64,000 nucleotides of DNA from Dehalococcoidia bacterium (GCA_022820645.1 JAJEFD010000006.1:79537-143536); one strand, 5' to 3'; positions 22,604 through 52,636 are shown, counted from the stretch's first letter. Numbers and translations: made by a program. The notes: a model not told the origin generated them from the sequence alone.

Positions 22604-23971
22604 CTATGCTCGCTGTAGCCGCACCTCTTCGTAGCGGCGGTAGATCTCCAGTATCTGGTTCAGCGCGGGACTGTACCTGTCCATGTGGTAGTGGCTCAAC
22701 TTGAATCCTGCGTTGTCTCCCACCACGGCAGTCATGTCCCCCATCTCTGTCAGGCTCATCCGGTGGTCATCCTTCTCAGAGAATGCAGAGCGGGTGACCG
22801 GCCCCGGCAGTACGTTGACCGGCAGGTCTATCCGTTCATTCACAGCGGGGTCCCGGAACACGTTTATCGGGTCGCCGCCGTCCTGCACGATCTTCATCTG
22901 GTCCATCAGCAGTTTGCGGAACATGATGACGCCGCGGTCGGAGACGCCGAGGCGTTCGTTCTCGCGGTCGGCGATGGCTCCCTGGCTCCACCATGCCGCC
23001 AGGTCCTGCGCGAGGACGTAGTCGGCGATGGGGCGCCCCGCCTCATCGAACAGCGGATGCTCGAAGTAGGGTACGTAGTCCTGCTCCGGCACCTCCACGT
23101 CCGGCCCGGGGCAGTACGCCATGTAGTCCAGGTGCAGCGTGTGCTCGTCGTCCATCGGCACTCGTATCTGCAGCTCGCTGCGTATCTTCCCGCCGAGGCG
23201 GACGAAGTACGGGAACACGAGCGGGTGGCCTATCGTCCAGTCCGGTGTGTCTTCGGCTTCACCCTCACGGAGACGGTACTTCTGGATACCCCACTCGTTC
23301 ACTTCCCACTCCGTTTTCAGGTGGCGGACCTTGAACGAGTCTGCATGCTCCTGTGCGATCGCATCGTGCTCCGGATTGCCGGTGCCGCCGCCGCGGTCCA
23401 GAACGTGGTACTCGAACCACCAGCCGTGCGTGTACTCGGTGTGCGAGGTGTCGACCGAGTTCTCCATGCACTGGAGCCAGTTGGCGTTCAGCACGGAGGC
23501 GCCGACGTGCCGGTACGTGTTGTCCCAGACGAGCACGTCCCAGCGCGGGAGGAGCGGCACGGGCTCCGGGCCCAGGTAGGCGAATATCAGCCCGCCCAGC
23601 TCCTGCACCGGGTACGACTTGATGCGCACCTTCTCGTTGAAGTGCGAGCCTTCCGGCTCCGTCGGCTGGTCTACGCACTGGCCGTTCACGTCGTACATCC
23701 AGCCGTGATACATGCAGCGCAGACCCTCCTCGGTGGGGATCCCGATGGAGAGGTCGACGCGCCGGTGCGCGCAGCGCCGGTCCACGAGGCCGATCCTGCC
23801 GCTCTTGTCCTTGAAGAGCGTCAGATCCTCGCCGAGCAGACGCACGGATATGACGGGGTCGCGAAGCAGCCGTCCGTTGCTGGTGACAGGCCACCAGTAG
23901 CGGCGGAGCAGTTCGCCCATGGGCGTGCCCGCGCCGGTCTGCGTCAGCAGTACGTTCTCTTCCGCACGCAT
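22604..23971 (-). CDS. Rieske [2Fe-2S] non-heme-iron oxygenase, alpha subunit (phthalate-family, alpha-only type) - R0
   Basis: Rieske motif CAHRRVDLSIGIPTEEGLRCMYHGW, mononuclear-iron motif NSVDTSHTEYTH, strong RBS AAGGAGGAG. Confidence 0.85.
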   Translation of the reverse strand: MRAEENVLLTQTGAGTPMGELLRRYWWPVTSNGRLLRDPVISVRLLGEDLTLFKDKSGRIGLVDRRCAHRRVDLSIGIPTEEGLRCMYHGWMYDVNGQCVDQPTEPEGSHFNEKVRIKSYPVQELGGLIFAYLGPEPVPLLPRWDVLVWDNTYRHVGASVLNANWLQCMENSVDTSHTEYTHGWWFEYHVLDRGGGTGNPEHDAIAQEHADSFKVRHLKTEWEVNEWGIQKYRLREGEAEDTPDWTIGHPLVFPYFVRLGGKIRSELQIRVPMDDEHTLHLDYMAYCPGPDVEVPEQDYVPYFEHPLFDEAGRPIADYVLAQDLAAWWSQGAIADRENERLGVSDRGVIMFRKLLMDQMKIVQDGGDPINVFRDPAVNERIDLPVNVLPGPVTRSAFSEKDDHRMSLTEMGDMTAVVGDNAGFKLSHYHMDRYSPALNQILEIYRRYEEVRLQRA

Positions 23972-39748: not shown

Positions 39749-40915
39749 CTACCCGCTGATCCCCGCGCCTGCGGGGACAGGCAGGCCGTAGAGCTTGGTG
39801 GTGCCCTTCCAGAGGATGCGCGATTTCTGTTCGTCGCTGAGGTCGGGGCGGTTGTAGATGTAGCGCGGCGAGTCCGGCACCCGGTGCGCGTGGGGGATGT
39901 CGCTCGCGTACACCCAGCAGTCCGTCCCGTACTTGTTCACCATGTAGGGCAGCAGGTCGTCGTCGACCTCGAAGCCGATGAAGATGCGGCCATCCCTGAT
40001 GTACTCCAGCGGCGTCGCCTCCGGCAGACCGCGCTCCACGATGGCCTTGTGCTCGGAGCGTATCGTGCCGAGCTCCAGCCGGTCCTTCACGTTGTCGAGC
40101 GTGAAGTCCATCACGGCGACGGCGAAGTCCACCCAGGTGCAGCCCGTCTCGAGGAACGACACCTTCACCTTCGGGTAGCGGTCGAGGATGCCGGAGCCGC
40201 AGATCGTCTTGAAGCCGCGCACCACCGACATGAGGAACTGGTCGCCCGCGATGTTGCGGTAGGTCTTCATCGCGTCGCGCGCGCCGGTGCCGGGGTGCAC
40301 GTTCACCGGCATCTCGAGGTCCTGCGCCGCGGCCCAGAAGCACTCGAGACTGGGGTGGTCCAGCGCCTTGTCGGAGTAGTCGCCGAACACCATCACGCCG
40401 ACCGAGCCCATCTTCTTCGTGCGTTCCATCTCGCGGACGGCCTCGGCGGGGTCGCGCGGGTCGATCGCCGTCACCCACTTCAGCCGGTCGGGCGACTGGT
40501 TGGAGACGTCGGCGACCCAGCTGTTGTAGGAGCGGGTGAGGGCGGCGTTCAGCGCCGGATCGCTGGCGATGGGCCAGCTCAAGAGCAGCGTGGGGTAGTT
40601 GACGGAGAGGTACGTGTTCTCCGCGTCCATCACCGCGAGCCGCGCCTCGGCGGAGTGGAACTCGCCGCTCTCGTGCGGGCCGCGCCACTTCGCCATCTTC
40701 TCGTACTCGGTGGAGACGACGCCGTCCTTGCTGGAGGGCGAGCCGCCGATGCGGATGCGCTCGCCGTCGATCTCCCAGATGAAGTCGTGCTCGAACTCGC
40801 CGGTCTCGACCACCTTCGGGCGGCGATCGCGGAACCCGGGCTCCAGGTAGTCGTCGGACCAGGTGGCCTCCCACTCCTCGACGTGCCCGTCGCCGTCCAC
40901 CGCCAGGATGTCCAT
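39749..40915 (-). CDS. Amidohydrolase-2 family protein
   Basis: Start at MDILAVDGDGHV (RBS GAGGAG). Further blocks VNVHPGTG and ASDIPHAH. Confidence 0.7.
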   Translation of the reverse strand: MDILAVDGDGHVEEWEATWSDDYLEPGFRDRRPKVVETGEFEHDFIWEIDGERIRIGGSPSSKDGVVSTEYEKMAKWRGPHESGEFHSAEARLAVMDAENTYLSVNYPTLLLSWPIASDPALNAALTRSYNSWVADVSNQSPDRLKWVTAIDPRDPAEAVREMERTKKMGSVGVMVFGDYSDKALDHPSLECFWAAAQDLEMPVNVHPGTGARDAMKTYRNIAGDQFLMSVVRGFKTICGSGILDRYPKVKVSFLETGCTWVDFAVAVMDFTLDNVKDRLELGTIRSEHKAIVERGLPEATPLEYIRDGRIFIGFEVDDDLLPYMVNKYGTDCWVYASDIPHAHRVPDSPRYIYNRPDLSDEQKSRILWKGTTKLYGLPVPAGAGISG

Positions 40916-41038
40916 CGCCCCTGCTCCTCGTTCCAAGATGGCGCAATCCTACCACGCGAGAGGGTGCCCGGCGCGCCCTACCCCTGTGCCACGGTATCTA
41001 GTAGAGTCCTTCCTGATACCAGCAGGAGGACCAGAACA

Positions 41039-41839
41039 ATGCCGAGAGAATGGGACGAGGTCAAATACGAGGTGGCGGTCGCGAACCGCGTACTCGCCGA
41101 AGTGGGACTCGCGACCGGCTTCCGGGCGTCGCTGGGGCACGCCAGCATGCGCCTGCCGAACGACCCGGACAAGTTCGTGGTGAAGGGCCGCGGTTACGCC
41201 GTCGACGCGCTGCACTCCATGCGCCCGCAGGACATGATCGTCGTGGACATCGAGGGCTACAAGGTGGACGGGCCGGTCGGCTCCTCCCAGCCGTTCGAGG
41301 TCATCATGCACTCCTCCATCATGAAGGCGCGCCCGGAGGTCAACTCCGTGGTGCACGTGCATCCGCACTACACCATCCTCGCCACGACGCTCGGGAGACG
41401 CCTCCGCCCCATGAACCAGGAGGGCGCACAACTGGTGCAGAAGGAACTGCCCGTGTGGAACCACGTCAAGACCGTGCAGACGGAGGAGGAGGGCGCCGAA
41501 GTCGCCACGCTGATGGGCGACTCTCCCGTCATCCTGCTGCGCGGCCACGGCGCGACGAGCGCGGGCAGCAGCCTGGAAGACGCGGTGATGACGATGATGC
41601 AGCTGGAGGAGCAGGCCAAGATGAACTACTGGGCCTACTCCGCCGCCGGACCGGACCACCCCTACCTCGAGGACGAGTTGGTCAATGAGATGTCCGGGCG
41701 CACGCCGTTGCCGCAACTGCCGCACTTCGCGCAGGTGCTCCCTTCCGGCTGGCGCCCGAGGGTCGGCGGCGTCTGGCAGTACTACACACGCGTCGTCACC
41801 GACAACCCGGAGGCGAAGCCGGACATCAGCAGACCGTAG
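41039..41839 (+). CDS. Class II aldolase/adducin-domain protein
   Basis: LGHASMRLP...FVVKGRG...VVHVHPHYT...LLRGHGATSAGSSLEDAV. RBS AGGAGGA. Confidence 0.75.
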   Translation: MPREWDEVKYEVAVANRVLAEVGLATGFRASLGHASMRLPNDPDKFVVKGRGYAVDALHSMRPQDMIVVDIEGYKVDGPVGSSQPFEVIMHSSIMKARPEVNSVVHVHPHYTILATTLGRRLRPMNQEGAQLVQKELPVWNHVKTVQTEEEGAEVATLMGDSPVILLRGHGATSAGSSLEDAVMTMMQLEEQAKMNYWAYSAAGPDHPYLEDELVNEMSGRTPLPQLPHFAQVLPSGWRPRVGGVWQYYTRVVTDNPEAKPDISRP

Positions 41840-41951: not shown

Positions 41952-43280
41952 ATGCTCAGCGTCAAAGCGAACCAGGAACTCACGCAGGTCAGCGCAGGCA
42001 CGCCGATGGGCGAACTGATGCGACGCTACTGGCACCCCATCGCAGGAGCGGCGGAGCTCGACGAGCGCCCCACCAAGGCCGTCCGCCTGCTCGGTGAGGA
42101 CCTCGTCCTCTACAAGGACAAGTCAGGCACGCTGGGCCTCATCGACCGCTTCTGCCCGCATCGCAGGGTCGACCTCTCCTACGGCATCCCCGAGGAGCAT
42201 GGGCTCCGGTGCATGTACCACGGCTGGATGATGGACGAGACCGGCCAGTGCATCGAGCAGCCGTTCGAGGAGACCGTCCACCCGGACGGACGCTTCAAGG
42301 AGAAGGTCAAGGTCGCCGGCTACCCGGTCGAGGTCGCAGGCGGACTCGTGTTCGCGTACCTCGGGCCGCAGCCCGTCCCGTTCCTGCCGCTGTGGGAGCC
42401 GCTCGTGTGGGACAACGCGGTGCGCGACATCGCCATCTCCCACCTGCCCTGCAACTGGCTCCAGTGCCAGGAGAACTCGCTCGACCCTGTGCACGTCGAG
42501 TGGGCGCACTCCTACTGGGGGCAGTACGTGCAACAGGGCCCCGGTTTCAAAGGCGCGCTGCTCGACCTGCCGACCCACCAGAAGATCGGGTTCGACATCT
42601 TCGAGCACGGCGTCGTGAAGCGCCGCGTGTTCAAGGGCTACACCGAGGAGGACGACGACTGGAAGCACGGCCACCCGGTCTTCGTGCCGAACATCCTGCT
42701 CGTCGGCTCCGAGGTCTCGGTGACGATGCAGTTCCGCGTCCCGATAGACGACGAGAACACGCTGCACGTTTCCCTCTACACGTGGAGGGGCGCTCCCGGC
42801 CAGCCCGTGCCTAAACAGGAGTCCGTCCCCTACCGGGAGGTGCCGCTGCTCGACGAGAACGGCCGCTGGATCGTGGACGTGGTGTTCAACCAGGACTACA
42901 CGATGTGGGTGACGCAGGGGCCCATCGCCAAGCGGAACCTCGAGCATCTCGGCGAGTCCGACCGCGGCCTCATCCTCTACCGGAAGCTGCTCCGCGAGCA
43001 GATGGACATCGTCGCCGACGGCGGGGATCCGATGAACGTCTTCCGCACCCCCGCGCCGGAGGGCGGCATCGTCGCGCCGCTGGAGCGGGTCAAGTTCGGG
43101 ATGAAGCGCGCCAAGAAGTACATCCCCGGCGAGGCCGGATACTCCCGCGACGGTGAACTCATCAACCAGGTGCTCCAGACGTGGGAGGAGTTGCCGGATC
43201 GCGCGCCCGCTGCTTCCGAGGACGAACTCAAGGAGGCCGCAGGCGCCGTGGATGGCATCAAGGACAACTGGCCGCTGTAG
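41952..43280 (+). CDS. Rieske non-heme-iron oxygenase alpha subunit - R1
   Basis: CPHRRVDLSYGIPEEHGLRCMYHGW and NSLDPVHVEWAH. ATG with RBS GAGGTG, chosen by analogy with R3 (both start MLSVKANQELTQVSAGTP). Confidence 0.85.
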   Translation: MLSVKANQELTQVSAGTPMGELMRRYWHPIAGAAELDERPTKAVRLLGEDLVLYKDKSGTLGLIDRFCPHRRVDLSYGIPEEHGLRCMYHGWMMDETGQCIEQPFEETVHPDGRFKEKVKVAGYPVEVAGGLVFAYLGPQPVPFLPLWEPLVWDNAVRDIAISHLPCNWLQCQENSLDPVHVEWAHSYWGQYVQQGPGFKGALLDLPTHQKIGFDIFEHGVVKRRVFKGYTEEDDDWKHGHPVFVPNILLVGSEVSVTMQFRVPIDDENTLHVSLYTWRGAPGQPVPKQESVPYREVPLLDENGRWIVDVVFNQDYTMWVTQGPIAKRNLEHLGESDRGLILYRKLLREQMDIVADGGDPMNVFRTPAPEGGIVAPLERVKFGMKRAKKYIPGEAGYSRDGELINQVLQTWEELPDRAPAASEDELKEAAGAVDGIKDNWPL

Positions 43281-43318
43281 CTTGGGGCACCGGTGAACGA
43301 ATACGAGGAGGCCACGCG

Positions 43319-44587
43319 ATGCTGAGCGTACAGGAGAATGAGCAACTGACGCAGGTCGGCCCCGGAACGCCGATGGGCGAACTCATGCGACGCTACTGGC
43401 ACCCCATCGCAGCCAGCGCCGAACTGATCGAGCGTCCCACCAAGGCCGTCCGCCTGCTCGGTGAGGACCTCGTCCTCTACAAGGACAAGTCCGGCACACT
43501 CGGCCTCATCGACCGCTTCTGCCCCCACCGTAGAGTCGACCTCTCCTACGGCATCCCCGAGGAGAACGGCCTGCGCTGTATGTACCACGGCTGGATGATG
43601 GACGAGACCGGACAGTGCATCGAGCAGCCCTTCGAGGAGACGGTCCACCCGGACGGTCGCTTCAAGGAGAAGGTGAAGATCGCAGGCTACCCGGTCCGCG
43701 AGATGGCGGGGCTGGTGTTCGCCTACCTCGGCCCGCAGCCCGTGCCGCTGCTCCCGCGTTGGGAGCACCTGCTCTGGGAGAACGCCGTCCGCGACATCGC
43801 CATCACGGAGATCCCCTGCAACTGGCTGCAGTGCCAGGAGAACTCGCTCGACCCCGTCCACGTCGAGTGGCTGCACGCCTACATGGGCGCGTACCGCAAC
43901 ACGGACCGCATCGCCACGCAGCAGCGCGGCTCGTCGCGCAGGCACCAGAGGATCGGGTTCGACGAGTTCGAGTTCGGCATCATCAAGCGCCGCATCCTCG
44001 AGGGCAAGGACGAGACCGACGATGAGTGGGCTGAGGGCCACCCCGTCCTCTTCCCGAACATCCTGCTCGTCGGCAACGAGGCGCGCGCCACGTTCCAGTT
44101 CCGCGTGCCCGTGGACGACACGAACACACTGCACGTCTCCATCTACAACTACCGCGCCGCGCCCGGCGCAAGCGCACCGACGCAGGATGCCATCCCCTAC
44201 CGCTACGTCCCGCTGAAGGACGACGAAGGACGCTACATCGTCGACTGGACGTTCAACCAGGACTACATGGCCTGGGCGACGCAGGGCCCCATCGCCAAGC
44301 GCCACCTGGAGATGCTGGGGCAGTCGGACGTCGGCATCATCCTCTTCCGCAAGCAGTTGAAGCGGAACATCGCGGTGATGGAGGACGGGGGCGACCCGAT
44401 GAACGTCTTCCGCGGAGACGAGCTCGGACTATTGCACGCGCCGGTGGAGAAGGTGAAGTTCGGTGTGCGGGCGCAGGCGCGCTACGTCCGGCCCGAAGCC
44501 GGCGACACCCCGGCGGTGCCGCAGATCGAAGAGGTCATGAGCACCTGGGTCGACTACCTCGGCGAGGAGGCCACGCTGGGGCGGTAG
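43319..44587 (+). CDS. Rieske non-heme-iron oxygenase alpha subunit - R2
   Basis: Start reassigned to MLSVQENEQLTQ (RBS GAGGAGG). CPHRRVDLSYGIPEENGLRCMYHGW and NSLDPVHVEWLH. Confidence 0.85.
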   Translation: MLSVQENEQLTQVGPGTPMGELMRRYWHPIAASAELIERPTKAVRLLGEDLVLYKDKSGTLGLIDRFCPHRRVDLSYGIPEENGLRCMYHGWMMDETGQCIEQPFEETVHPDGRFKEKVKIAGYPVREMAGLVFAYLGPQPVPLLPRWEHLLWENAVRDIAITEIPCNWLQCQENSLDPVHVEWLHAYMGAYRNTDRIATQQRGSSRRHQRIGFDEFEFGIIKRRILEGKDETDDEWAEGHPVLFPNILLVGNEARATFQFRVPVDDTNTLHVSIYNYRAAPGASAPTQDAIPYRYVPLKDDEGRYIVDWTFNQDYMAWATQGPIAKRHLEMLGQSDVGIILFRKQLKRNIAVMEDGGDPMNVFRGDELGLLHAPVEKVKFGVRAQARYVRPEAGDTPAVPQIEEVMSTWVDYLGEEATLGR

Positions 44588-44651
44588 GGACGCCCCACTT
44601 CTCGCTGCCAAGCCGCCAGAGAAAGCTAACGCGGTTAACCTCGCGTCGCGC

Positions 44652-44680
44652 TTGACCGGCGCACACGTCCGCCCTACCCT
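44652..44680 (+). promoter_or_regulatory. Putative promoter of Rieske gene R3 (TTGACC-17-TACCCT)
   Basis: Paralogous to 41884..41912, with the same 40-nt distance to the ATG. Confidence 0.4.
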
Positions 44681-44719
44681 TACGCCACGCACACCCACGT
44701 ACGCGAGGAGAATGCACGC

Positions 44720-45997
44720 ATGCTCAGCGTCAAGGCCAACCAGGAACTCACGCAGGTCAGCGCAGGGACGCCGGGGGGCGAGCTCATGCGCCGCTACTGG
44801 CACCCCATCGCCGCGACGGCGGAGCTCGACGAGCGCCCCACCAAGCCGGTGCGGCTGCTCGGCGAGGACCTCGTCCTCTACCGCGACAGATCCGGCACCC
44901 TGGGCCTCATCGAACGCTTCTGCCCCCACCGTCGGGTCGACCTCTCCTACGGCATACCGGAGGAGAACGGCCTCCGATGCATGTACCACGGCTGGATGAT
45001 GGACGAGACCGGCCAGTGCATCGAGCAGCCCTTCGAGGAGACGGTCCATCCGGACGGACGCTTCAAGGAGAAGGTCAAGATCGCGGGCTATCCTGTGGAG
45101 GAACTCGGCGGCCTCATCTTCGCGTACATGGGCCCGCAGCCCATGCCGCTGCTGCCGCGATGGGAGCAGCTGACGTGGGACAACGCGGTGCGCGAGATCT
45201 GCATCTCCGAACTGCCGTGCAACTGGCTGCAGTGCCAGGAGAACTCACTCGACCCCGTCCACAACGAGTGGCTCCACGCCTACTACGGCAACGTCGTCCG
45301 CAACGGCGTCCACGCGCTGCCCGAACTGCGCGGCACACACCTCAAGATCGGGTTCGACGTCTTCGAGCACGGCATCATCAAGCGCCGCGTCGAGGCCGGA
45401 TACACCGAGGAGGACGACGACTGGAAGGAAGGCCACCCCATCATGTTCCCCAACATCCTCCTGGTGGGCGACGAGGTGCGCTCCACGTTCCAGTTCCACG
45501 TGCCCGTGGACGACGAGAACACATACCACGTCTCCTACTACGTGTGGCGTCCCGCGCCCGGAGCACAGGCCCCGCGTCAGGAGAGCGTCCCCTACCGCTA
45601 CGTGCCGCTGAAGGACGAGAACGACCGCTACATCAACGACATCCTCTTCAACCAGGACTACCTCGCGTGGGTCACGCAGGGCCCCGTCGCCAAGCGCCAC
45701 CTGGAGAAGCTCGGCGAGTCCGACAAGGGCACCATCCTCTTCAGGAAGCTGCTGCAGGAGCAGGCGCAACTCGTCGCCGACGGCGGCGACCCGATGAACA
45801 CGTTCCGCGACCCCGAGCAGAACGAGGCGATCAGCCTGCCGCTGGAGCACGTGAAGTTCGGCAACCGCCGCCGCATGGGCTACACGCTCGTCGAGGCCGG
45901 TGAGCCGGTCGTAGCCGACGTCGTGAACGAGACGCTGGAAAGCTGGGAGGGCATGCGCAGCCTGCCGCGCACCGCAGGGGCCGCGCACGGGGCGTAG
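44720..45997 (+). CDS. Rieske non-heme-iron oxygenase alpha subunit - R3
   Basis: CPHRRVDLSYGIPEENGLRCMYHGW and NSLDPVHNEWLH. Confidence 0.85.
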   Translation: MLSVKANQELTQVSAGTPGGELMRRYWHPIAATAELDERPTKPVRLLGEDLVLYRDRSGTLGLIERFCPHRRVDLSYGIPEENGLRCMYHGWMMDETGQCIEQPFEETVHPDGRFKEKVKIAGYPVEELGGLIFAYMGPQPMPLLPRWEQLTWDNAVREICISELPCNWLQCQENSLDPVHNEWLHAYYGNVVRNGVHALPELRGTHLKIGFDVFEHGIIKRRVEAGYTEEDDDWKEGHPIMFPNILLVGDEVRSTFQFHVPVDDENTYHVSYYVWRPAPGAQAPRQESVPYRYVPLKDENDRYINDILFNQDYLAWVTQGPVAKRHLEKLGESDKGTILFRKLLQEQAQLVADGGDPMNTFRDPEQNEAISLPLEHVKFGNRRRMGYTLVEAGEPVVADVVNETLESWEGMRSLPRTAGAAHGA

Positions 45998-46140
45998 CAG
46001 CCATTCAGAGCGACGTGTGACCGCCAGCACGGCGCAGGGGTTGACGACGGTCATCGCCCGATAGCGCTTGACGTTGCGCGGCTTGCTATAATCCCGTCGC
46101 AGGACAGCGCGAAATCCAGCAGCACAAGGAGAGAGACCTC

Positions 46141-47424
46141 ATGCTGACGCAGGAAGCGAACGACCGCTACACCCGGGTAGGCCCCGGCACCCCGATGGGC
46201 GAGCTGATGCGACGCTACTGGCACCCCGTAGCCGCCGTCTCCCAGATGAACGACAAGTGGACGATGAAGGTGCGCCTCTTGGGCGAGGACCTCATCCTCT
46301 ACAAGGACCGCTCCGGCACGTTCGGCCTCATGGAGCCGCACTGCGCCCACCGGCGCATGAACATGATTTACGGCATCCCTGAGGAGCACGGCCTCCGCTG
46401 CCCATACCACGGCTGGCTGTACGATGAGACGGGCCAGTGCACCGAGCAGCCGTACGAGGAGACAGAGGACCCGGAGGCGCGGTTCAAGGACAAGATCCAG
46501 ATGAAGGCGTACCCGGTGGAGCAGAAGGCCGGGCTGCTGTTCGCCTACCTCGGCCCGACGCCCGTGCCCCTCATCCCCAACTACGACGTCTTCTCCGCGA
46601 CCGGCGTCCTGCGCGACATCGGCTACGCGATGCTCCCGTGCAACTGGCTGCAGTGCCAGGAGAACTCGCTGGACCCGGTGCACCTCGAGTGGCTGCACGT
46701 CGCGTGGGCCAACTTCATCCGCGAGATGAACGGCGACAAGGAACGCCGCACCCGCTGGCCGCACAAGACCATCCGCTTCGACGCCTTCGAGCACGGCATC
46801 ATCAAGCGCCGCATCTGGGAGGGCGGTTCCGAAGAGGACACCGAGTGGAAGGACGGCCACCCCATCGTCTTCCCCAACTACCTGCGACAGGGCGGCGACG
46901 GCTACAACGTTGCCGACGGCAGGTACCGGGGCAGCTTCTCGATGGGCCCCGCCTTCCAGATCCGCACCCCCATCGACGACTACAACACCGCCCACTGGTG
47001 GGTCGCCTGCTACCCGATGATCGAGGGCGACGTCGAGCAGGCGCCGGAGGAGATCCCCTTCTACCTCCCGCCCGTGCCGACGCTGGACGAGAACGACCAG
47101 CCCATCTATCCCGAACTGCGCAGCAACTCCTCGCAGGACCCGGCGGCATGGATAACGCAGGGCGGCATCGCCGACCGCACGGGCGAGCACCTCGGCCGCT
47201 CCGACAAGGGCATCATCATGTTCCGCCAGATGCTGGAGGACAACATGCGCATCGTCGAGGACGGCGGCGACCCGATGGAGGTCTACCGAGACCCCGCGGA
47301 GAACGTCTACATCCCGTTCATGACGGAGCAGCACAACTACGTGGACACCTCGTCCCGCCAGGGGGCGGCGACGATGTACTCGCCCATCCTGGATAGGCGG
47401 GAAGCCGCAGCTGCGGCCAAGTAG
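46141..47424 (+). CDS. Rieske non-heme-iron oxygenase alpha subunit - R4 (more divergent)
   Basis: CAHRRMNMIYGIPEEHGLRCPYHGW and NSLDPVHLEWLH. RBS AAGGAGAG. A perfect TATAAT lies at 46087-46092. Confidence 0.85.
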   Translation: MLTQEANDRYTRVGPGTPMGELMRRYWHPVAAVSQMNDKWTMKVRLLGEDLILYKDRSGTFGLMEPHCAHRRMNMIYGIPEEHGLRCPYHGWLYDETGQCTEQPYEETEDPEARFKDKIQMKAYPVEQKAGLLFAYLGPTPVPLIPNYDVFSATGVLRDIGYAMLPCNWLQCQENSLDPVHLEWLHVAWANFIREMNGDKERRTRWPHKTIRFDAFEHGIIKRRIWEGGSEEDTEWKDGHPIVFPNYLRQGGDGYNVADGRYRGSFSMGPAFQIRTPIDDYNTAHWWVACYPMIEGDVEQAPEEIPFYLPPVPTLDENDQPIYPELRSNSSQDPAAWITQGGIADRTGEHLGRSDKGIIMFRQMLEDNMRIVEDGGDPMEVYRDPAENVYIPFMTEQHNYVDTSSRQGAATMYSPILDRREAAAAAK

Positions 47425-47460: not shown

Positions 47461-47568
47461 TCGCTATCCCGACCTCACCACTCTATGATTGCGGCGGCAG
47501 CGCGCCCGTTCTGCTCGACGTGGGGAGTGTTGCCGAACCTGAACACGACACATCGCAGGAGGCGCAAC

Positions 47569-48678
47569 ATGACCCTCATCCTGAATAACGACGACATCGC
47601 ATCCGTGCTGACGATGGAGGAGACGATAGGCGCGCTGCGGAACGCGTACGAGGAGCTCGCGCGCACCGAGGCCGTCTGCCGCCCGCGCATCGACATCCGC
47701 ATCCCCACGTCCGACCCCGCGAAGATGTATCAGTGGGGCACGATGGAGGGCGGCTCCGCGTCCGGCTACTTCGCCATCCGCATGAAATCGGACGTCGTCT
47801 ACGAGCAGGAGTACGGCGGCACGCGCACCCAGGAGAAGTACTGCCTGCGCCCCGGCCTCTTCTGCGGCCTCATCCTGCTGATGAGCGTCGATAACGGCGA
47901 GCCGCTCGCCATCATCAACGACGGCTACCTCCAGCACATGCGCGTCGGGGCCGACTCCGGCATCGGCGCGGGCTACATGGCGCGCGAGGACGCGTCGGTC
48001 GTCGCCATGATCGGCTCCGGCGGCATGGCGCGCTCGCACGCCGAGTCGTTCGCCGCCGTACGCGACATCAAGCGCATCCAGGTCTACAGTCCCACGAAGG
48101 CGAACCGCGAGGCCTACGCCGCCGAGATACAGGCGAAGATGGGCATCGAGGTCGTCCCGGTCGGGTCCGCTGCCGAGGCGTGCAAGGGCGCGCACATCGT
48201 CGCGGGGTGTACTGACGCGGTGGAGCCGGTCATCTTCGGCAAGGACATCGAGGACGGCGCGCACATGACCTGCGTCGGCGGCAGCATCGACGGCGAAGCG
48301 TTCGAGCGCATCGACCGCTCGCTCCGCCTCGGCTCGGCGCCTGCGCCGGTCGGCATACCGGAGATGCGGCTCCACGACGAGAACATCGCCTACGAGGCCA
48401 ACGCGCCGGACGGTACGCCCGCATCCGCGAGCCAGACGCGCGAGCGCGCCGGCAGGGGGCACGGCGTCGTCGCCGAGGACCGCGTCGTCTTCCTGGAAGA
48501 AGTGCTGCAGGGAGCACAGGCACGTCCCGGCCCCAGCGCCGTCACCTACTCGGAGCGCGGCAACATCCAGGGCGCGCAGTTCTTCTCCGTCGCGGGCCGC
48601 GCCTACGAACTCGCAAAGGCGAAGGGTCTCGGCCACGAACTCCCCACCGAGTGGTTCCTGCAGGACATCCGCGACTGA
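47569..48678 (+). CDS. Ornithine cyclodeaminase/mu-crystallin family protein
   Basis: Start at MTLILNNDDIASVLTMEETIGALRNAY (RBS CAGGAGG). Rossmann motif MIGSGGMARSHA. Confidence 0.7.
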   Translation: MTLILNNDDIASVLTMEETIGALRNAYEELARTEAVCRPRIDIRIPTSDPAKMYQWGTMEGGSASGYFAIRMKSDVVYEQEYGGTRTQEKYCLRPGLFCGLILLMSVDNGEPLAIINDGYLQHMRVGADSGIGAGYMAREDASVVAMIGSGGMARSHAESFAAVRDIKRIQVYSPTKANREAYAAEIQAKMGIEVVPVGSAAEACKGAHIVAGCTDAVEPVIFGKDIEDGAHMTCVGGSIDGEAFERIDRSLRLGSAPAPVGIPEMRLHDENIAYEANAPDGTPASASQTRERAGRGHGVVAEDRVVFLEEVLQGAQARPGPSAVTYSERGNIQGAQFFSVAGRAYELAKAKGLGHELPTEWFLQDIRD

Positions 48679-48766
48679 GGCGGGCGACGCGTCACACACC
48701 CGCCCCCTACCCCACACTCCCATCTCGGAGTAAGATGCGGCCATCCGGAACCGACGGAGGCTTGGC

Positions 48767-49867
48767 ATGGCGCGACGTTTCACCTACGACGACTGGATGG
48801 AGTCCCAGGGCATCCCCATCCACCGGGGCTACTACGTGGAAGACCTCCGCACCGCCGAGCTCGGCTGGTGGGAGGACCGCCAGGTGGACGCCGCGTTCAT
48901 GCAGTTGCGCGGCATGGAGGGCGTGGTCGAGGGCCGCATCGAGGAGATACCGCCGGGACACACGCTCCCACCGCTGAAACTCTCCGTCGACGAGCAGGTC
49001 TACGTCCTCGGCGGACGCGGTGTCGCCACCGTCTGGACGGACGACGTCCGCCCGAAGAAGACGTTCGAGTGGGCGACGCGCAGCCTCTTCCTCGTGCCGC
49101 GCAACTCGTACTGCCAGTTGACGAACATGGACGGCAACAACCCGGCGCGGCTGCTCCACTACAACTACCTCCCCATCGCCATGTCCGCCACACCGGACCC
49201 GGACTTCTTCGTCAACAACCCGTACTCCACCAACTCCTTCCTGCACAGCACGGAGGAGTTCTACTCCGAGGCGAAGGCCGTCATGGAGGAGGGCGAGGGC
49301 GCCTTCGCCGGACGCGGACGGCAGGTGTGGCACGGCAACTTCTTCCCGGACATGGCCGCCTGGGACAAGCTCGTCCCGTTCTGGGGGCGCGGCGCCGGCG
49401 GACACGTCGTCTTCATCCAGTCGCCCGGGTCGGAGATGCACGCGCACATGTCCGTCTTCCCCGCCCGCACCTACAAGAAGGGCCACCGCCACGGGCCGGG
49501 GCGCGTCATCGTCATCCCCGGCGGCGAGGGCTACTCCGTCATGTGGGAGGAGGGGAAGGAGAAGATCGTCATTCACTGGCACGAGGCGAGTTGCTTCGTA
49601 CCCCCGGACCGCTGGTTCCACCAGCACTTCAACCTCGGCCGGGCCGACGGGCGCTACCTCGCGCTCCATCCGCCGAACCAGTTCATGGGCATGTCCGAGA
49701 AGGTCACCGACCGCGGCCGCGACCAGATCGAGTACCCGAACGAGGACCCGTGGATACGCGAGTACTTCGAGAGCCAGCTGGCCGAGCGCGGCATGACGTC
49801 CGAGATACCGGCGGAAGCCTATGAGGACCCCACCTACGAGTGGGACTACTCGAAGTCCGCGGGCTGA
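48767..49867 (+). CDS. Bicupin protein, gentisate-1,2-dioxygenase-like (3-His site only in the C-terminal cupin) - cupin 1
   Basis: C-terminal barrel: YKKGHRHGPGRVIVIPGGEGYS...CFVPPDRWFHQHFNLG (HxH...H). The N-terminal barrel has G..YVLGGRG...LFLVPRN but no His ligands. RBS GGAGG. Confidence 0.7.
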   Translation: MARRFTYDDWMESQGIPIHRGYYVEDLRTAELGWWEDRQVDAAFMQLRGMEGVVEGRIEEIPPGHTLPPLKLSVDEQVYVLGGRGVATVWTDDVRPKKTFEWATRSLFLVPRNSYCQLTNMDGNNPARLLHYNYLPIAMSATPDPDFFVNNPYSTNSFLHSTEEFYSEAKAVMEEGEGAFAGRGRQVWHGNFFPDMAAWDKLVPFWGRGAGGHVVFIQSPGSEMHAHMSVFPARTYKKGHRHGPGRVIVIPGGEGYSVMWEEGKEKIVIHWHEASCFVPPDRWFHQHFNLGRADGRYLALHPPNQFMGMSEKVTDRGRDQIEYPNEDPWIREYFESQLAERGMTSEIPAEAYEDPTYEWDYSKSAG

Positions 49868-49963
49868 TGTCCGGCGCGGCACGCGCTCGCGCGATACGGT
49901 AAGATAGGGCGACGCCGGGCATAGTCCCGGCGTTGCGCTGCAATCTCTCTCTGGGGACGCCAC

Positions 49964-51487
49964 ATGCACGACGACGACGATCTCGACCATTCACACGTAT
50001 TCGACCTGCTGAACGACGAGGAAGCCGAGGATATCGAGGGGATCGAGAAGTTCACGCTCTACAGCGTGGGCATAGACATCGGCTCCTCCACCACCCACAC
50101 CATCTTCTCCCGGCTGGTGCTTCGCCGCGAGGGCGCCGGGCTCTCCGCCAAGTTCGTCGTCACCAACCGCGACGTGCTCTACCGCTCGCCCATCATGCTC
50201 ACGCCCTACTCCTCCGGCACCGCCATCGACACGGACAGCGTGCAGGAGTTCATCGAGCGCTCCTACAGCGAGGCGGGTTTCACGCCGGACGACGTTGACA
50301 CCGGCGCGGTCGTCATCACGGGCGAGGCGCTCAAGAAGGAGAACGCGCAGCCCATCCTCGAGTACTTCTCCGAGGAGTCCGGGCGTTTCATCTGCGCGTC
50401 CGCAGGCCCGATGCACGAGGCGCTGCTGGCGGCGTTCGGCTCCGGCGCAGTCGCCATCTCCAAGAGCAATTCCAACACCGTGCTGGACGTGGACATGGGC
50501 GGCGGCACGACCAAGATATCCCTCATCCGCAACGGCGAGATCGCCCAGATGGTCGCCATCGAGGTCGGCGCGCGTCTCATCGCCTACGACGACGACATGA
50601 CCATCACCCGCGTCGAGCAGCCCGCCCGCACCATCCTCGGCTCACTCGGCCAGACGGTCGAGGTCGGCGAGAAGCTCACGGACGAGAAGCGCGAGCTGTT
50701 CGCCGCCAAGATGACCGACATCCTCTTCGACGCCATCAGCGGCGGCGAGATGGACCCGCTCACCGATTCGCTCCTGCTCACCGACAGCCTCGACATCGAC
50801 TCGCTGGAGGACGTCGACCACGTCGTCTTCTCCGGCGGCGTGTCCGAGTACGTGTACGACCGCACGAGCGAGTCGTACGGCGACATCGGCCCGTGGCTCG
50901 GTAAGAACGTGCGCGAGCGCTGTCAGCAGACGTTGCGTCCCGGCATGCTGGTGATGCCCGCCGAGGGCATCCGCGCCACCGTTATCGGCGCGGGCGAGTA
51001 CACCCTGCAGGCGAGCGGGAGCACCTCGTACATCTCCACGCACGACGTGCTTCCGGTGCGCGGCATACAGGTCGCTCGGGCGTTCATTAACAAGGAGCAG
51101 ACCGCGGAAGAGATGGAGGCTGCGCTGGCGACAGGCGTCGGCAAGTACGACCTGGCGAAGCTGCCATCCACCATGGCGCTCGCCATGTCCATAGCCGGAC
51201 AGCCGGACTACTGGTACATCCGGCGCCTGGCAGAATCCATCGTCAAGACCGTGGACGACGAGCCCCCGGAAGCTCCGGTCTTCGTCGTCGTGGACGTGGA
51301 CGTGGCCAAGTCGCTCGGCGGCATCATCCGCGAGGAGTTGCACCTGGACCGGGCCGTCATCGCGATAGACGGCATCGAGGTGGGTGACCTGGACTACGTG
51401 GACGTGGGCAAGCCGATGGGCGCGAGCGAGGTCATCCCCGTCACCGTCAAGTCGCTCGTATTCTCCATCCGCTCGCAGTCCGGATAG
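49964..51487 (+). CDS. EutA-family ASKHA ATPase (homologue of the ethanolamine ammonia-lyase reactivating factor) with an acidic/His-rich N-terminal tail - EutA-like 1
   Basis: Collinear with E. coli EutA as I recall it: VGIDIGSSTTH, VDTGAVVITGEALKKENA, ICASAGPMHEALLAAFGSGA, VLDVDMGGGTTK, VFSGGVSEYVY, IRATVIGAGEYTLQASGSTS, VIPVTVKSLVF. Confidence 0.8.
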   Translation: MHDDDDLDHSHVFDLLNDEEAEDIEGIEKFTLYSVGIDIGSSTTHTIFSRLVLRREGAGLSAKFVVTNRDVLYRSPIMLTPYSSGTAIDTDSVQEFIERSYSEAGFTPDDVDTGAVVITGEALKKENAQPILEYFSEESGRFICASAGPMHEALLAAFGSGAVAISKSNSNTVLDVDMGGGTTKISLIRNGEIAQMVAIEVGARLIAYDDDMTITRVEQPARTILGSLGQTVEVGEKLTDEKRELFAAKMTDILFDAISGGEMDPLTDSLLLTDSLDIDSLEDVDHVVFSGGVSEYVYDRTSESYGDIGPWLGKNVRERCQQTLRPGMLVMPAEGIRATVIGAGEYTLQASGSTSYISTHDVLPVRGIQVARAFINKEQTAEEMEAALATGVGKYDLAKLPSTMALAMSIAGQPDYWYIRRLAESIVKTVDDEPPEAPVFVVVDVDVAKSLGGIIREELHLDRAVIAIDGIEVGDLDYVDVGKPMGASEVIPVTVKSLVFSIRSQSG

Positions 51488-51511
51488 CAGGAGCATTCGG
51501 AGTCTGGCGCC

Positions 51512-51835
51512 ATGCTCATCGCGGCACTCGTCTTTGGACTCCTGGGCGGGGTCGTCGGCCTCTTCATCGGGACGCTCGTATTCATCGGCGATCTGGTGGA
51601 CTTCGCGTTCCGCGGGGGAGATACCAACACCGCCGGACTGCTGGTGCTGTTCTTCGCCCTCCTGGCCATCGCGGGCTCGATCATGTCCCTCAAGAAACCG
51701 TGGCAGGCTGCGGCGCTCCTGCTCGTCTCCGGCATCGGCCCCATGATCGTCGTCAACATATTCGGAGCGCCCATCTTTTTCCTCACGCTCCTTGCGGCCT
51801 TCTCGGCTGTACGCGGACGCCGCGAGATCCGCTAG
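51512..51835 (+). CDS. Small 4-TM membrane protein
   Basis: 107 aa, almost entirely hydrophobic (LIAALVFGLLGGVVGLFIGTLVFIG, LLVLFFALLAIAGSI, AALLLVSGIGPMIVV, IFFLTLLAAF). Starts 24 nt after EutA-like 1. Confidence 0.55.
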   Translation: MLIAALVFGLLGGVVGLFIGTLVFIGDLVDFAFRGGDTNTAGLLVLFFALLAIAGSIMSLKKPWQAAALLLVSGIGPMIVVNIFGAPIFFLTLLAAFSAVRGRREIR

Positions 51836-51848
51836 CGCAGACACGAAA

Positions 51849-51877
51849 GGGCCGGAACGCGACTTGCGTTCCGGCCC
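51849..51877. terminator. Bidirectional stem-loop terminator
   Basis: Perfect 12-bp stem GGGCCGGAACGC / GCGTTCCGGCCC with a 5-nt loop, followed by CTCTTTCTC. Lies between convergent genes ending at 51835 and 51902. Confidence 0.65.
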
Positions 51878-51901
51878 CTCTTTCTCGTCGTTCCTGCCGC
51901 T

Positions 51902-52636
51902 TTACTTCAAGTGCGCCCCGAAGAACGCCAGCGTCTTCGGCCACGAGTCGGCGGATGCCGCCTCGTGGTAGCTGCCTCGCTCGGTGCAGAAGAAACCGTG
52001 GCCCGCGCCCTCGTAGACGTGGTTCTCTATCGACTTGCCCTTCTCCTTCAGCACCCGCTCGATCTCCTCGACGTTGGAGACCGGTATGCCGCCGTCCTCG
52101 GTGCCCCAGAAGCCGATGATAGGGGCCTGCACCGCGTCGGCGGTGGCGTCGAGCAGGCGCGGCGCGTCCGCCGGTGCGTCGGGGCGCGGCAGGATGCCGC
52201 CGCCGTAGTAGACCGCAGCCGCCTTGATGCCGCTCATCGTGGAACCGAGGTAGGAGACCATCCCGCCGAAGCAGAAGCCCACGATGCCGATGTTGTCTGC
52301 ATCCACGTCCGGGTTGCTGCGCAGGTAGTCGATCGTCGCCTGCACGTCCGCCGTGATGTCGTCGTTGCTCAGCTTGCCGCGCTCCGCGAACGCCGCCTGC
52401 ATCTCGGAGAACGGGATGTCGACGCCCTTGCCGGAGCGGTGGAACATCTCCGGCGCAGCCGCGAAGTAGCCCGCGTCGGCGAACCGGTCCGCGATGCTGC
52501 GAACGTCGTTGTTCACGCCGAAGATCTCCTGGATCACGATCACCGCCGCGCTCTTTCCGCCGCCGTCCGGGCGCGCCGTATAGATAGGCATCGGGCTGCC
52601 GCCCACATTCACTTCCGCAACGTCAGATGTTGCCAT
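51902..52636 (-). CDS. Dienelactone hydrolase (carboxymethylenebutenolidase) family protein
   Basis: AVIVIQEIFGVNN, Cys-nucleophile elbow GFCFGG, C-terminal GAGHGF. Confidence 0.8.
   Translation of the reverse strand: MATSDVAEVNVGGSPMPIYTARPDGGGKSAAVIVIQEIFGVNNDVRSIADRFADAGYFAAAPEMFHRSGKGVDIPFSEMQAAFAERGKLSNDDITADVQATIDYLRSNPDVDADNIGIVGFCFGGMVSYLGSTMSGIKAAAVYYGGGILPRPDAPADAPRLLDATADAVQAPIIGFWGTEDGGIPVSNVEEIERVLKEKGKSIENHVYEGAGHGFFCTERGSYHEAASADSWPKTLAFFGAHLK

Follow-up and report, generated by a model that had tools for sequence, protein, structure and literature searches.

A shared Rieske module, probably homogenized by gene conversion, joined to paralogue-specific catalytic domains in a tandem oxygenase array from a Dehalococcoidia bacterium

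A tandem array of four genes for putative Rieske oxygenase α subunits (R1–R4; positions 41952–47424) lies in a 64,000-nucleotide (nt) stretch of DNA from a Dehalococcoidia bacterium (GCA_022820645.1, JAJEFD010000006.1:79537-143536). The whole stretch, hereafter the window, corresponds to C7:79537-143536 of the source genome (2.75 Mb, 95% complete). Comparison of the array with paralogues in the same genome and with orthologues in related genomes suggests that it probably belongs to a two-part family, in which a common Rieske module that is homogenized by gene conversion and held by selection is joined to catalytic domains with their own paralogue histories, each with a fixed loop at the active-site entrance.

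The array consists of four intact open reading frames (ORFs) on the + strand, all with a Pfam Rieske domain, as an earlier reading of the DNA made without database searches (the sequence-only reading) had proposed: R1 (442 amino acids (aa); 41952–43280), R2 (422 aa; 43319–44587), R3 (425 aa; 44720–45997) and R4 (427 aa; 46141–47424), separated by gaps of 38, 132 and 143 nt. All have orthologues in other species, those of R1 being 87–98% identical in 11 species and those of R4 92–99% identical in nine; R4 is a more distant paralogue, 49–50% identical to R1–R3. A fifth gene on the − strand, R0 (455 aa; 22604–23971), is a distant paralogue, 45–50% identical to R1–R4. The Pfam Rieske domain (PF00355) is matched in R0–R4 with E values of about 1e-16 to 1e-19, and LigXa_C (PF19301) is present in all five with scores of 40–50 bits against a cut-off of 27, with only profile positions ~206–258 of 304 (~50) aligned; NCBIfam gave partial matches only, all below threshold. 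No substitution is seen, in any of the five paralogues or of 61 homologues, at the Rieske cluster ligands C68, H70, C87 and H90 (CxH...CxxH), at the bridging D178 or at the iron ligands of the 2-His-1-carboxylate site (H181, H186 and D315). D178, H181 and H186 align with Asp178, His181 and His186 of the phthalate dioxygenase PDO_KF1 (hereafter PDO), and D315 aligns with its NQD motif.

An AlphaFold2 (AF2) model of R1, with a predicted local distance difference test (pLDDT) score of 90.9 and a predicted template modelling (pTM) score of 0.90, shows a Rieske domain and a catalytic domain of helix-grip fold. Its best Foldseek matches are 7V25, 7FJL, 9INA and 7FHR (E values 1e-28 to 1e-30, template modelling (TM) scores 0.64–0.72, 24–28% identity), and PDO_KF1, isophthalate dioxygenase (IPDO) and RO_CH34 are also the best sequence matches among solved structures. 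Given these Pfam domains, the invariant ligands, and the fold and sequence matches, R1–R4 and R0 are predicted to be intact α-only Rieske non-heme-iron oxygenases of the phthalate/LigXa-like group. R1–R4 probably assemble as head-to-tail α3 trimers.

The Rieske and catalytic parts of R1–R3 have diverged very unequally. The near-identity over the first 100 residues that had been seen in a hand alignment was measured at 87–92%, with 90 identical residues for R1–R2, 92 for R1–R3 and 87 for R2–R3. Full-length amino-acid identity is 67%, 74% and 68.5%, respectively, and identity to R4 and R0 is 45–50%, in agreement with the earlier placing of these two as more remote relatives. In sliding windows across R1–R3, amino-acid identity is 90–100% at residues 46–105 and 12–44% at alignment columns 196–225, directly after the iron motif DPVHxEWxH; it is 39–65% in the window that follows, and 57–83% over the remaining catalytic domain. 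The motif and the three variable strings quoted in the sequence-only reading are present exactly as given, and its description of a nearly unalignable stretch after the iron motif is accurate.

This non-uniformity survives proper alignment: the proportion of nonsynonymous differences (pN) is 0.006–0.03 in the Rieske core (residues 46–120) versus 0.23–0.28 in the catalytic part. Between paralogues, the ratio of nonsynonymous to synonymous divergence (dN/dS) is 0.01–0.07 in the core and 0.6–1.0 in the variable segment. The orthologue groups of R1, R2 and R3 are separated by 0 fixed amino-acid differences in residues 1–120, versus 110–128 in residues 121–442. Synonymous differences per region (pS), counted according to Nei and Gojobori, were similar everywhere but lay near the plateau set by codon bias, and were replaced by counts at four-fold degenerate sites with cross-genome controls.

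The shared core extends well beyond the array. The core of R1 (residues 46–120; 42087–42311), which carries the four cluster ligands, is 95–99% identical to those of R2 (43454–43678) and R3 (44855–45079), all on the + strand; R4 has its own Rieske core, with 68% identity to that of R1. Twelve paralogues on seven contigs, namely R1–R3 and nine dispersed copies, have cores that are 91–100% identical to the R1 core. Mean core identity over the twelve is 96%, with catalytic domains at about 55–65%; compared with R1, the catalytic parts of the core-sharing paralogues are 47–70% identical, and the loop differs in both length and sequence. In the catalytic-domain tree, R2 lies nearest to a dispersed copy (C19:70095), and R1–R3 do not form an exclusive clade. 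With the same core in nine dispersed paralogues, and no clade made up of the tandem copies alone, possession of the shared core is not peculiar to the array.

Two of the dispersed paralogues, C7:149041 and C4:50390, have the common core (97% and 91% identical to that of R1), and their catalytic domains fall weakly beside a group with a different core, a hint that modules may have been exchanged. Domain shuffling among the twelve core-sharing paralogues was rejected as an explanation: the catalytic tree splits them, but they are still compatible with monophyly under the approximately unbiased (AU) test (p=0.07).

The segment after the iron motif shows the opposite behaviour, differing between paralogues and being constant within them. 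In R1, this paralogue-specific segment (residues 187–211; 42510–42584) takes in the last part of the iron-ligand helix together with the next loop: the AF2 model has a helix at residues 181–194, bearing H181 and H186, a loop at 195–208 (pLDDT about 80) and a strand at 209–217. Corresponding segments occupy residues 187–211 of R2 (43877–43951), 187–209 of R3 (45278–45346) and 187–210 of R4 (46699–46770), all on the + strand. Within each gene, residues 187–211 are almost invariant among orthologues of 11–12 species, those of R1 being near-invariant in 12 orthologues. Columns that are at least 90% conserved within each orthologue group yet different between groups make up 48% of residues 187–211, 10–17% of the catalytic regions within 121–365 and 0% of the Rieske domain; only the C-terminal regions (366–442), at 37–43%, come near the 48% of the loop.

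In PDO_KF1 and RO_CH34, loop LIII (residues 186–199 in RO_CH34) forms one side of the active-site entrance (PMC8649396), and the pocket is lined by Arg207 of PDO, Trp201 of RO_CH34 and Leu198 of IPDO, residues that determine which substrate is accepted (PMC8649396, PMC12445078). A profile alignment places both the PDO Arg207 stretch and loop LIII within the variable segment. This alignment, together with the His181/His186 numbering common to R1 and the solved homologues, indicates that the segment is unlikely to be a remote surface loop. The ‘hypervariable catalytic segment’ of the sequence-only reading, with its proposed change in the pocket, was thus right in that the segment differs between paralogues and appears to sit at the pocket or entrance. 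It does not describe the present state of the segment: since this is near-invariant among orthologues of 11–12 species, it would mark each paralogue with a fixed sequence of its own at the entrance or pocket, and is not hypervariable at present. Such fixation within orthologue groups fits an old specialization for different substrates, and we infer that the loop sets substrate specificity.

If the segment were instead a relaxed, neutral surface loop and the paralogues were redundant, then the fall in pLDDT to about 78–82 in residues 191–210, the variation in segment length between 23 and 41 residues within the family and the dN/dS of 0.6–1.0 between paralogues would all find a ready explanation. 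Relaxation is nevertheless hard to reconcile with conservation within orthologue groups of 11–12 species, where the segment is conserved about like the rest of the protein (0.935), or with the part that the homologous positions of PDO, IPDO and RO_CH34 play in lining the entrance or pocket and deciding specificity; we consider it highly improbable. A table of the McDonald–Kreitman kind was discarded as a test of positive selection, because synonymous ‘fixed’ differences are lost by turnover within groups and the resulting huge ratios are uninformative.

Near-identical Rieske domains in neighbouring genes might suggest that recent or ongoing conversion among the three tandem copies keeps them so. 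Three observations in the window would be consistent with this. A run of 56 nt in R1 (42069–42124, + strand), to which the sequence-only reading had drawn attention, has an identical copy in R2 at 43436–43491; codons 14–15 of R1 (AGC GCA; 41991–41996, + strand) are those of R3; and R2 and R3 share N82 and the rare codon CGT at position 71. The 56-nt match is exact, but it is no evidence for conversion, as it lies within the distribution of a cross-species control: when R1 of one species is compared with R2 of another, the longest stretch of identity is 44 nt on average and at most 83 nt, with 70 nt as the 95th percentile. An invariant protein sequence combined with the G+C content at third codon positions (GC3) of these genes, 0.92, leads to long identical DNA runs. 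A contiguous R2–R3 conversion tract at codons 71–82 was also rejected, since the intervening sites differ. The patch at codons 14–15 fares better. In a codon table of 11 genomes, most R1 orthologues have GGC CCC or GGC CCG there, and AGC GCA is found elsewhere only in R1 of genome L002; it is probably a micro-conversion patch, and the sole local trace of conversion.

The core as a whole shows no sign of recent exchange. Distances among the cores of R1–R3 are 0.080, 0.098 and 0.089, compared with 0.085, 0.093 and 0.081 for cross-genome pairs, and in the window’s clade core nucleotide identity is 0.92–0.93 for paralogues in the same genome versus 0.916–0.922 across genomes. Synonymous divergence is not reduced in the window’s core, with four-fold sites differing at 0.361 in the core versus 0.396 in the catalytic part (p=0.52). 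The comparison of dN/dS by region that had been suggested separates core from loop, but reveals no synonymous deficit in the core. As there is no four-fold deficit and same-genome paralogues are no closer than cross-genome ones, purifying selection and codon bias (92% GC3) give the best account of present identity within the window, with no recent homogenization. The presence of the same core in nine dispersed copies also speaks against exchange among tandem neighbours, and recent conversion, largely refuted for the core, is very unlikely as an account of the array.

By contrast, on longer timescales and in related genomes the Rieske module does appear to have undergone gene conversion. Conversion homogenizing the electron-transfer domain of tandem duplicates, which the sequence-only reading had thought possible, is upheld for relatives and deep time but not as a recent process in the window. 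All four subfamily copies in the more distant genome L009 have A66, L67 and F94, where every copy in the window’s clade has R, F and M, and in the genomes B83 and 83cf, likewise, all copies of a genome share core variants particular to it. At matched catalytic identity (0.50–0.75), core identity is 0.92–0.97 for same-genome pairs versus 0.82–0.93 for different-genome pairs. Trees of the two domains disagree accordingly: in the catalytic-domain tree, copies from L009 and from the metagenome-assembled genome (MAG) B83T1L10 each join their window orthologues, whereas in the Rieske-domain tree they join each other. AU tests reject genome-wise clades for the catalytic data (p=1.6e-59 and 1e-5) and orthologue clades for the Rieske data (p=5e-4, 5e-5 and 0.045). 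A sliding comparison between the window and L009 finds paralogues to be more alike than orthologues at residues 1–30 and 46–120 and nowhere else.

More local traces are found in individual relatives. In MAG B83T1L10 (L038:6528-9320), the R2 and R3 orthologues are identical over a tract of 93 nt that includes an in-frame insertion unique to them; such identity in two tandem copies, insertion included, cannot have arisen in parallel. Through the tract, the Rieske domain acquires an in-frame replacement of ~17 aa (PPRVSRPGAAPGSSEVVVKS). The tract also includes the palindrome CCCGGCGC/GCGCCGGG, and may represent an element resembling the repetitive extragenic palindromic (REP) type that entered a coding loop and was then spread by conversion. 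In a sister clade, clade B (L005, L006 and L014), R2 and R3 differ at 2–6 of the first 66 nt, versus 13–18 in the window’s clade, and share rare codons there, so that the 5′ ends of R2 and R3 appear to have been converted. In L005, the four-fold difference is 0.168 in the core versus 0.409 in the catalytic part (p=4e-7), a contrast to which codon bias contributes.

Two further observations concern relatives. In L011, R1 and R2 share an identical run of 106 nt from codon 87, which exceeds the between-genome maximum of 83 nt and is thus likely to be a recent conversion tract in that species. Throughout whole genes of L005, L006 and L014, C occupies 0.62–0.69 of third positions versus 0.51–0.57 in the window’s clade, with similar GC3, a strand-like shift in composition that causes genes of the same genome to cluster in nucleotide trees. 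A nucleotide tree of codons 1–120, in which clade B copies are grouped by genome, largely reflects this shift in third-position C and was not used.

Several results weigh against the two-part reading or limit its evidence. Those that bear on conversion favour an alternative without any, in which purifying selection and codon bias keep the cores alike and the variants shared within a genome are parallel substitutions, arising through co-evolution with one redox partner. Such parallel adaptation to a changed partner could in principle produce core variants shared across a genome, and the small difference in core identity between same-genome and different-genome pairs in the window’s clade is in line with this alternative. 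Over the 12 paralogues, the raw four-fold difference is 0.32–0.37 in the core versus 0.37–0.49 elsewhere, with 0.71 of four-fold sites in the core ending in C; once normalized for composition, observed/expected values are 0.70–0.80 in core and rest alike, so that the low synonymous divergence of the core is confounded by codon bias. The very low dN/dS of the core and its high GC3 point the same way. In addition, the clades for the AU tests were chosen with the trees already in view, and the mapping of the variable segment onto solved structures was made by profile alignment and shared numbering, not by coordinates.

Set against the alternative without conversion are the identical 93-nt tract in two tandem copies of MAG B83T1L10 and the rare codons common to R2 and R3 of clade B over their first 66 nt. 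It would also need 3 to about 17 identical substitutions to be repeated in 4–12 paralogues per lineage. Furthermore, a permutation test found a small same-genome excess in identity in the core only (0.0066, p=0.0016), which is not seen in the window’s own genome. On balance, a history wholly without gene conversion seems unlikely.

Under the two-part reading, electrons would pass to the [2Fe-2S] cluster (C68, H70, C87 and H90) and then across the subunit interface via D178 to the mononuclear iron (H181, H186 and D315), where O2 would be activated for the hydroxylation or demethylation of an aromatic or similar substrate. The Rieske module (residues ~46–120, and partly 1–30) would evolve in concert within a genome by conversion limited to the conserved block, and between conversion events would be kept near-invariant by purifying selection. 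The conserved block itself may supply the identical stretches needed for recombination, and the diverged catalytic DNA may limit the tracts. The most likely reason for the constraint is that all copies dock the same scarce donor and keep a common subunit interface. The catalytic domains, meanwhile, would keep their paralogue histories, with the sharpest differences in residues 187–211, after the second iron histidine.

A search for electron-transfer partners is consistent with such a donor. No gene for a β subunit, ferredoxin or reductase was found within C7:79537-143536 by whole-genome family searches, which bears out what had been said of the window from its sequence. Four β-subunit loci (PF00866) are present in the genome outside the window, all within ~2 kb of a Rieske-domain locus that does not belong to the R1-type set. 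The reductase partner for which the sequence-only reading had suggested searching the genome did not emerge in canonical form: searches with PF00175, PF00111, PF14759 and PF07992 yielded no canonical reductase, only one FNR-like protein and unrelated Fe–S subunits. PF14759 (Reductase_C) has no match in the genome, Fer2 matches are only of the CoxS, SdhB or NuoG type, and those PF07992 matches that were inspected resemble, by eye, enzymes of the dihydrolipoamide dehydrogenase type. Four small Rieske ferredoxin-like ORFs lie outside the window (C17:19585-19836, C7:219145-219405, C19:182984-183226 and C13:129599-129841), one of them beside a classical α/β pair and one in a PTPS operon. The single FNR-like flavoprotein, the lack of Reductase_C and the small number of ferredoxin-like ORFs together support a shared, scarce donor. 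Some 60 α-subunit genes thus stand against one FNR-like flavoprotein without an Fe–S domain (C14:13522-14277), and no ferredoxin reductase of the glutathione reductase type.

The common module also admits a bolder interpretation, in which the twelve paralogues form mixed α3 heterotrimers and/or use one non-canonical donor, making up a combinatorial oxygenase pool maintained by ectopic conversion of a block of ~225–350 nt. Since the Rieske domain of one subunit serves the active site of the next in a head-to-tail trimer, a common module would let any combination of catalytic domains work. We regard this extension as quite unlikely.

With PDO_KF1 (7FJL, 7V25), RO_CH34 (7FHR) and IPDO_KF1 (9INA), the array proteins have in common the numbering of the iron histidines (181/186), Asp178, the α-only architecture and the NQD motif; however, R1 is only 24–28% identical to them. 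PDO Arg207 lies within an 8-residue insertion of PDO that is not present in R1–R4, according to a profile alignment that is approximate here. The carboxylate-binding Arg244 of PDO falls opposite residue 239, which is paralogue-specific (H in R1, E in R2 and R3, D in R4), again where the alignment is approximate, and the extension through which PDO forms hexamers (285–338) has no counterpart in R1–R4. Given the low identity, the two unmatched arginines and the missing hexamer extension, phthalate is not an expected substrate.

LigXa is the oxygenase of the 5,5′-dehydrodivanillate (DDVA) O-demethylase LigXa–LigXc–LigXd, in which LigXc is the ferredoxin and LigXd the reductase. Likeness to it consists in the LigXa_C match, above the gathering score in R0–R4 over ~50 of 304 positions only, and in the many homologues so named by JGI. 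No LigXc/LigXd-like pair of ferredoxin and reductase was identified in the genome, where PF14759 is absent and the Fer2 matches belong to other enzyme classes. As the proteins have neither the PDO arginines nor the LigXa partners, they are filed no more finely than as members of the α-only Rieske oxygenase group.

Several oxygenases are known to operate with one electron-transfer set, as in the multiple KshA homologues with one KshB and in the oxygenase sets of sphingomonads. Those systems resemble the present one in having many terminal oxygenases, few redox partners and a Rieske domain that is more conserved than the catalytic domain. They differ from it in degree and pattern: here the core is 96% identical on average over 12 paralogues, and tracks the genome and not the paralogue.

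The array itself is old and recurs in relatives. The order R1–R2–R3–R4, with one-to-one orthologues at 87–98% identity, is found in at least 10 other Dehalococcoidia/SAR202 species-level genomes, which indicates that the duplications that gave rise to R1–R4 are old. The more distant genome L009 has orthologues at 72–80% identity and an extra copy (9307), which lies between R1 and R2; in L013, an extra paralogue (8292) lies between R2 and R3. In L001, ~1.6 kb between R2 and R3 (L001:10742-12284) holds two antisense ORFs that are not in the window, one of 324 aa and one of 187 aa that is Ala/Gly-rich.

In the source genome, which is that of a marine bacterium of SAR202 type, tblastn detected 58 loci of this family, and Rieske-domain loci number 66. 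The nearest public records are MAGs of Dehalococcoidia, SAR202 or Chloroflexi, including SAR202-VII-2 and MPMJ01, the latter described as a sponge symbiont in the relevant part of Saw et al. 2020 (PMC6946804). The same source reports for SAR202 group VII an expansion of ring-hydroxylating dioxygenase α subunits of up to 62 copies per genome, with few β subunits and mostly ‘phthalate dioxygenase’ annotations, and such genes are noted in sponge-associated Chloroflexi in the corresponding passages of Bayer et al. 2018 (PMC6306507). The array represents a minor component of this already described SAR202 paralogue expansion (COG4638), with which the genome shares tens of α copies (58–66 here, up to 62 in the reported counts) and few β subunits (four here). 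In their passages on these genes, Saw et al. 2020 and Bayer et al. 2018 count and annotate copies, without mention of a shared Rieske module, concerted evolution, the four-gene array or the entrance loop.

The genes flanking the array (39749–41839 and 47485–52636) encode an amidohydrolase_2 protein, a class II aldolase, an OCD/mu-crystallin protein, a EutA-like ATPase and a dienelactone hydrolase; a further neighbour is cupin-like in appearance, with no Pfam match. These neighbours fit ring-compound catabolism, naming no substrate. No regulator was recognized among them.

Abundant both in the ocean and in sponges, SAR202 bacteria have large oxygenase families whose proposed targets are recalcitrant or host-derived aromatics. 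For such families, the findings carry a caution: where GC3 is 92% and the protein sequence does not vary, neither long identical runs nor nucleotide trees are a reliable guide to gene conversion. They also point to a design rule for this family, in which a common electron-receiving module would be kept in concerted evolution while each paralogue has its own fixed entrance loop.

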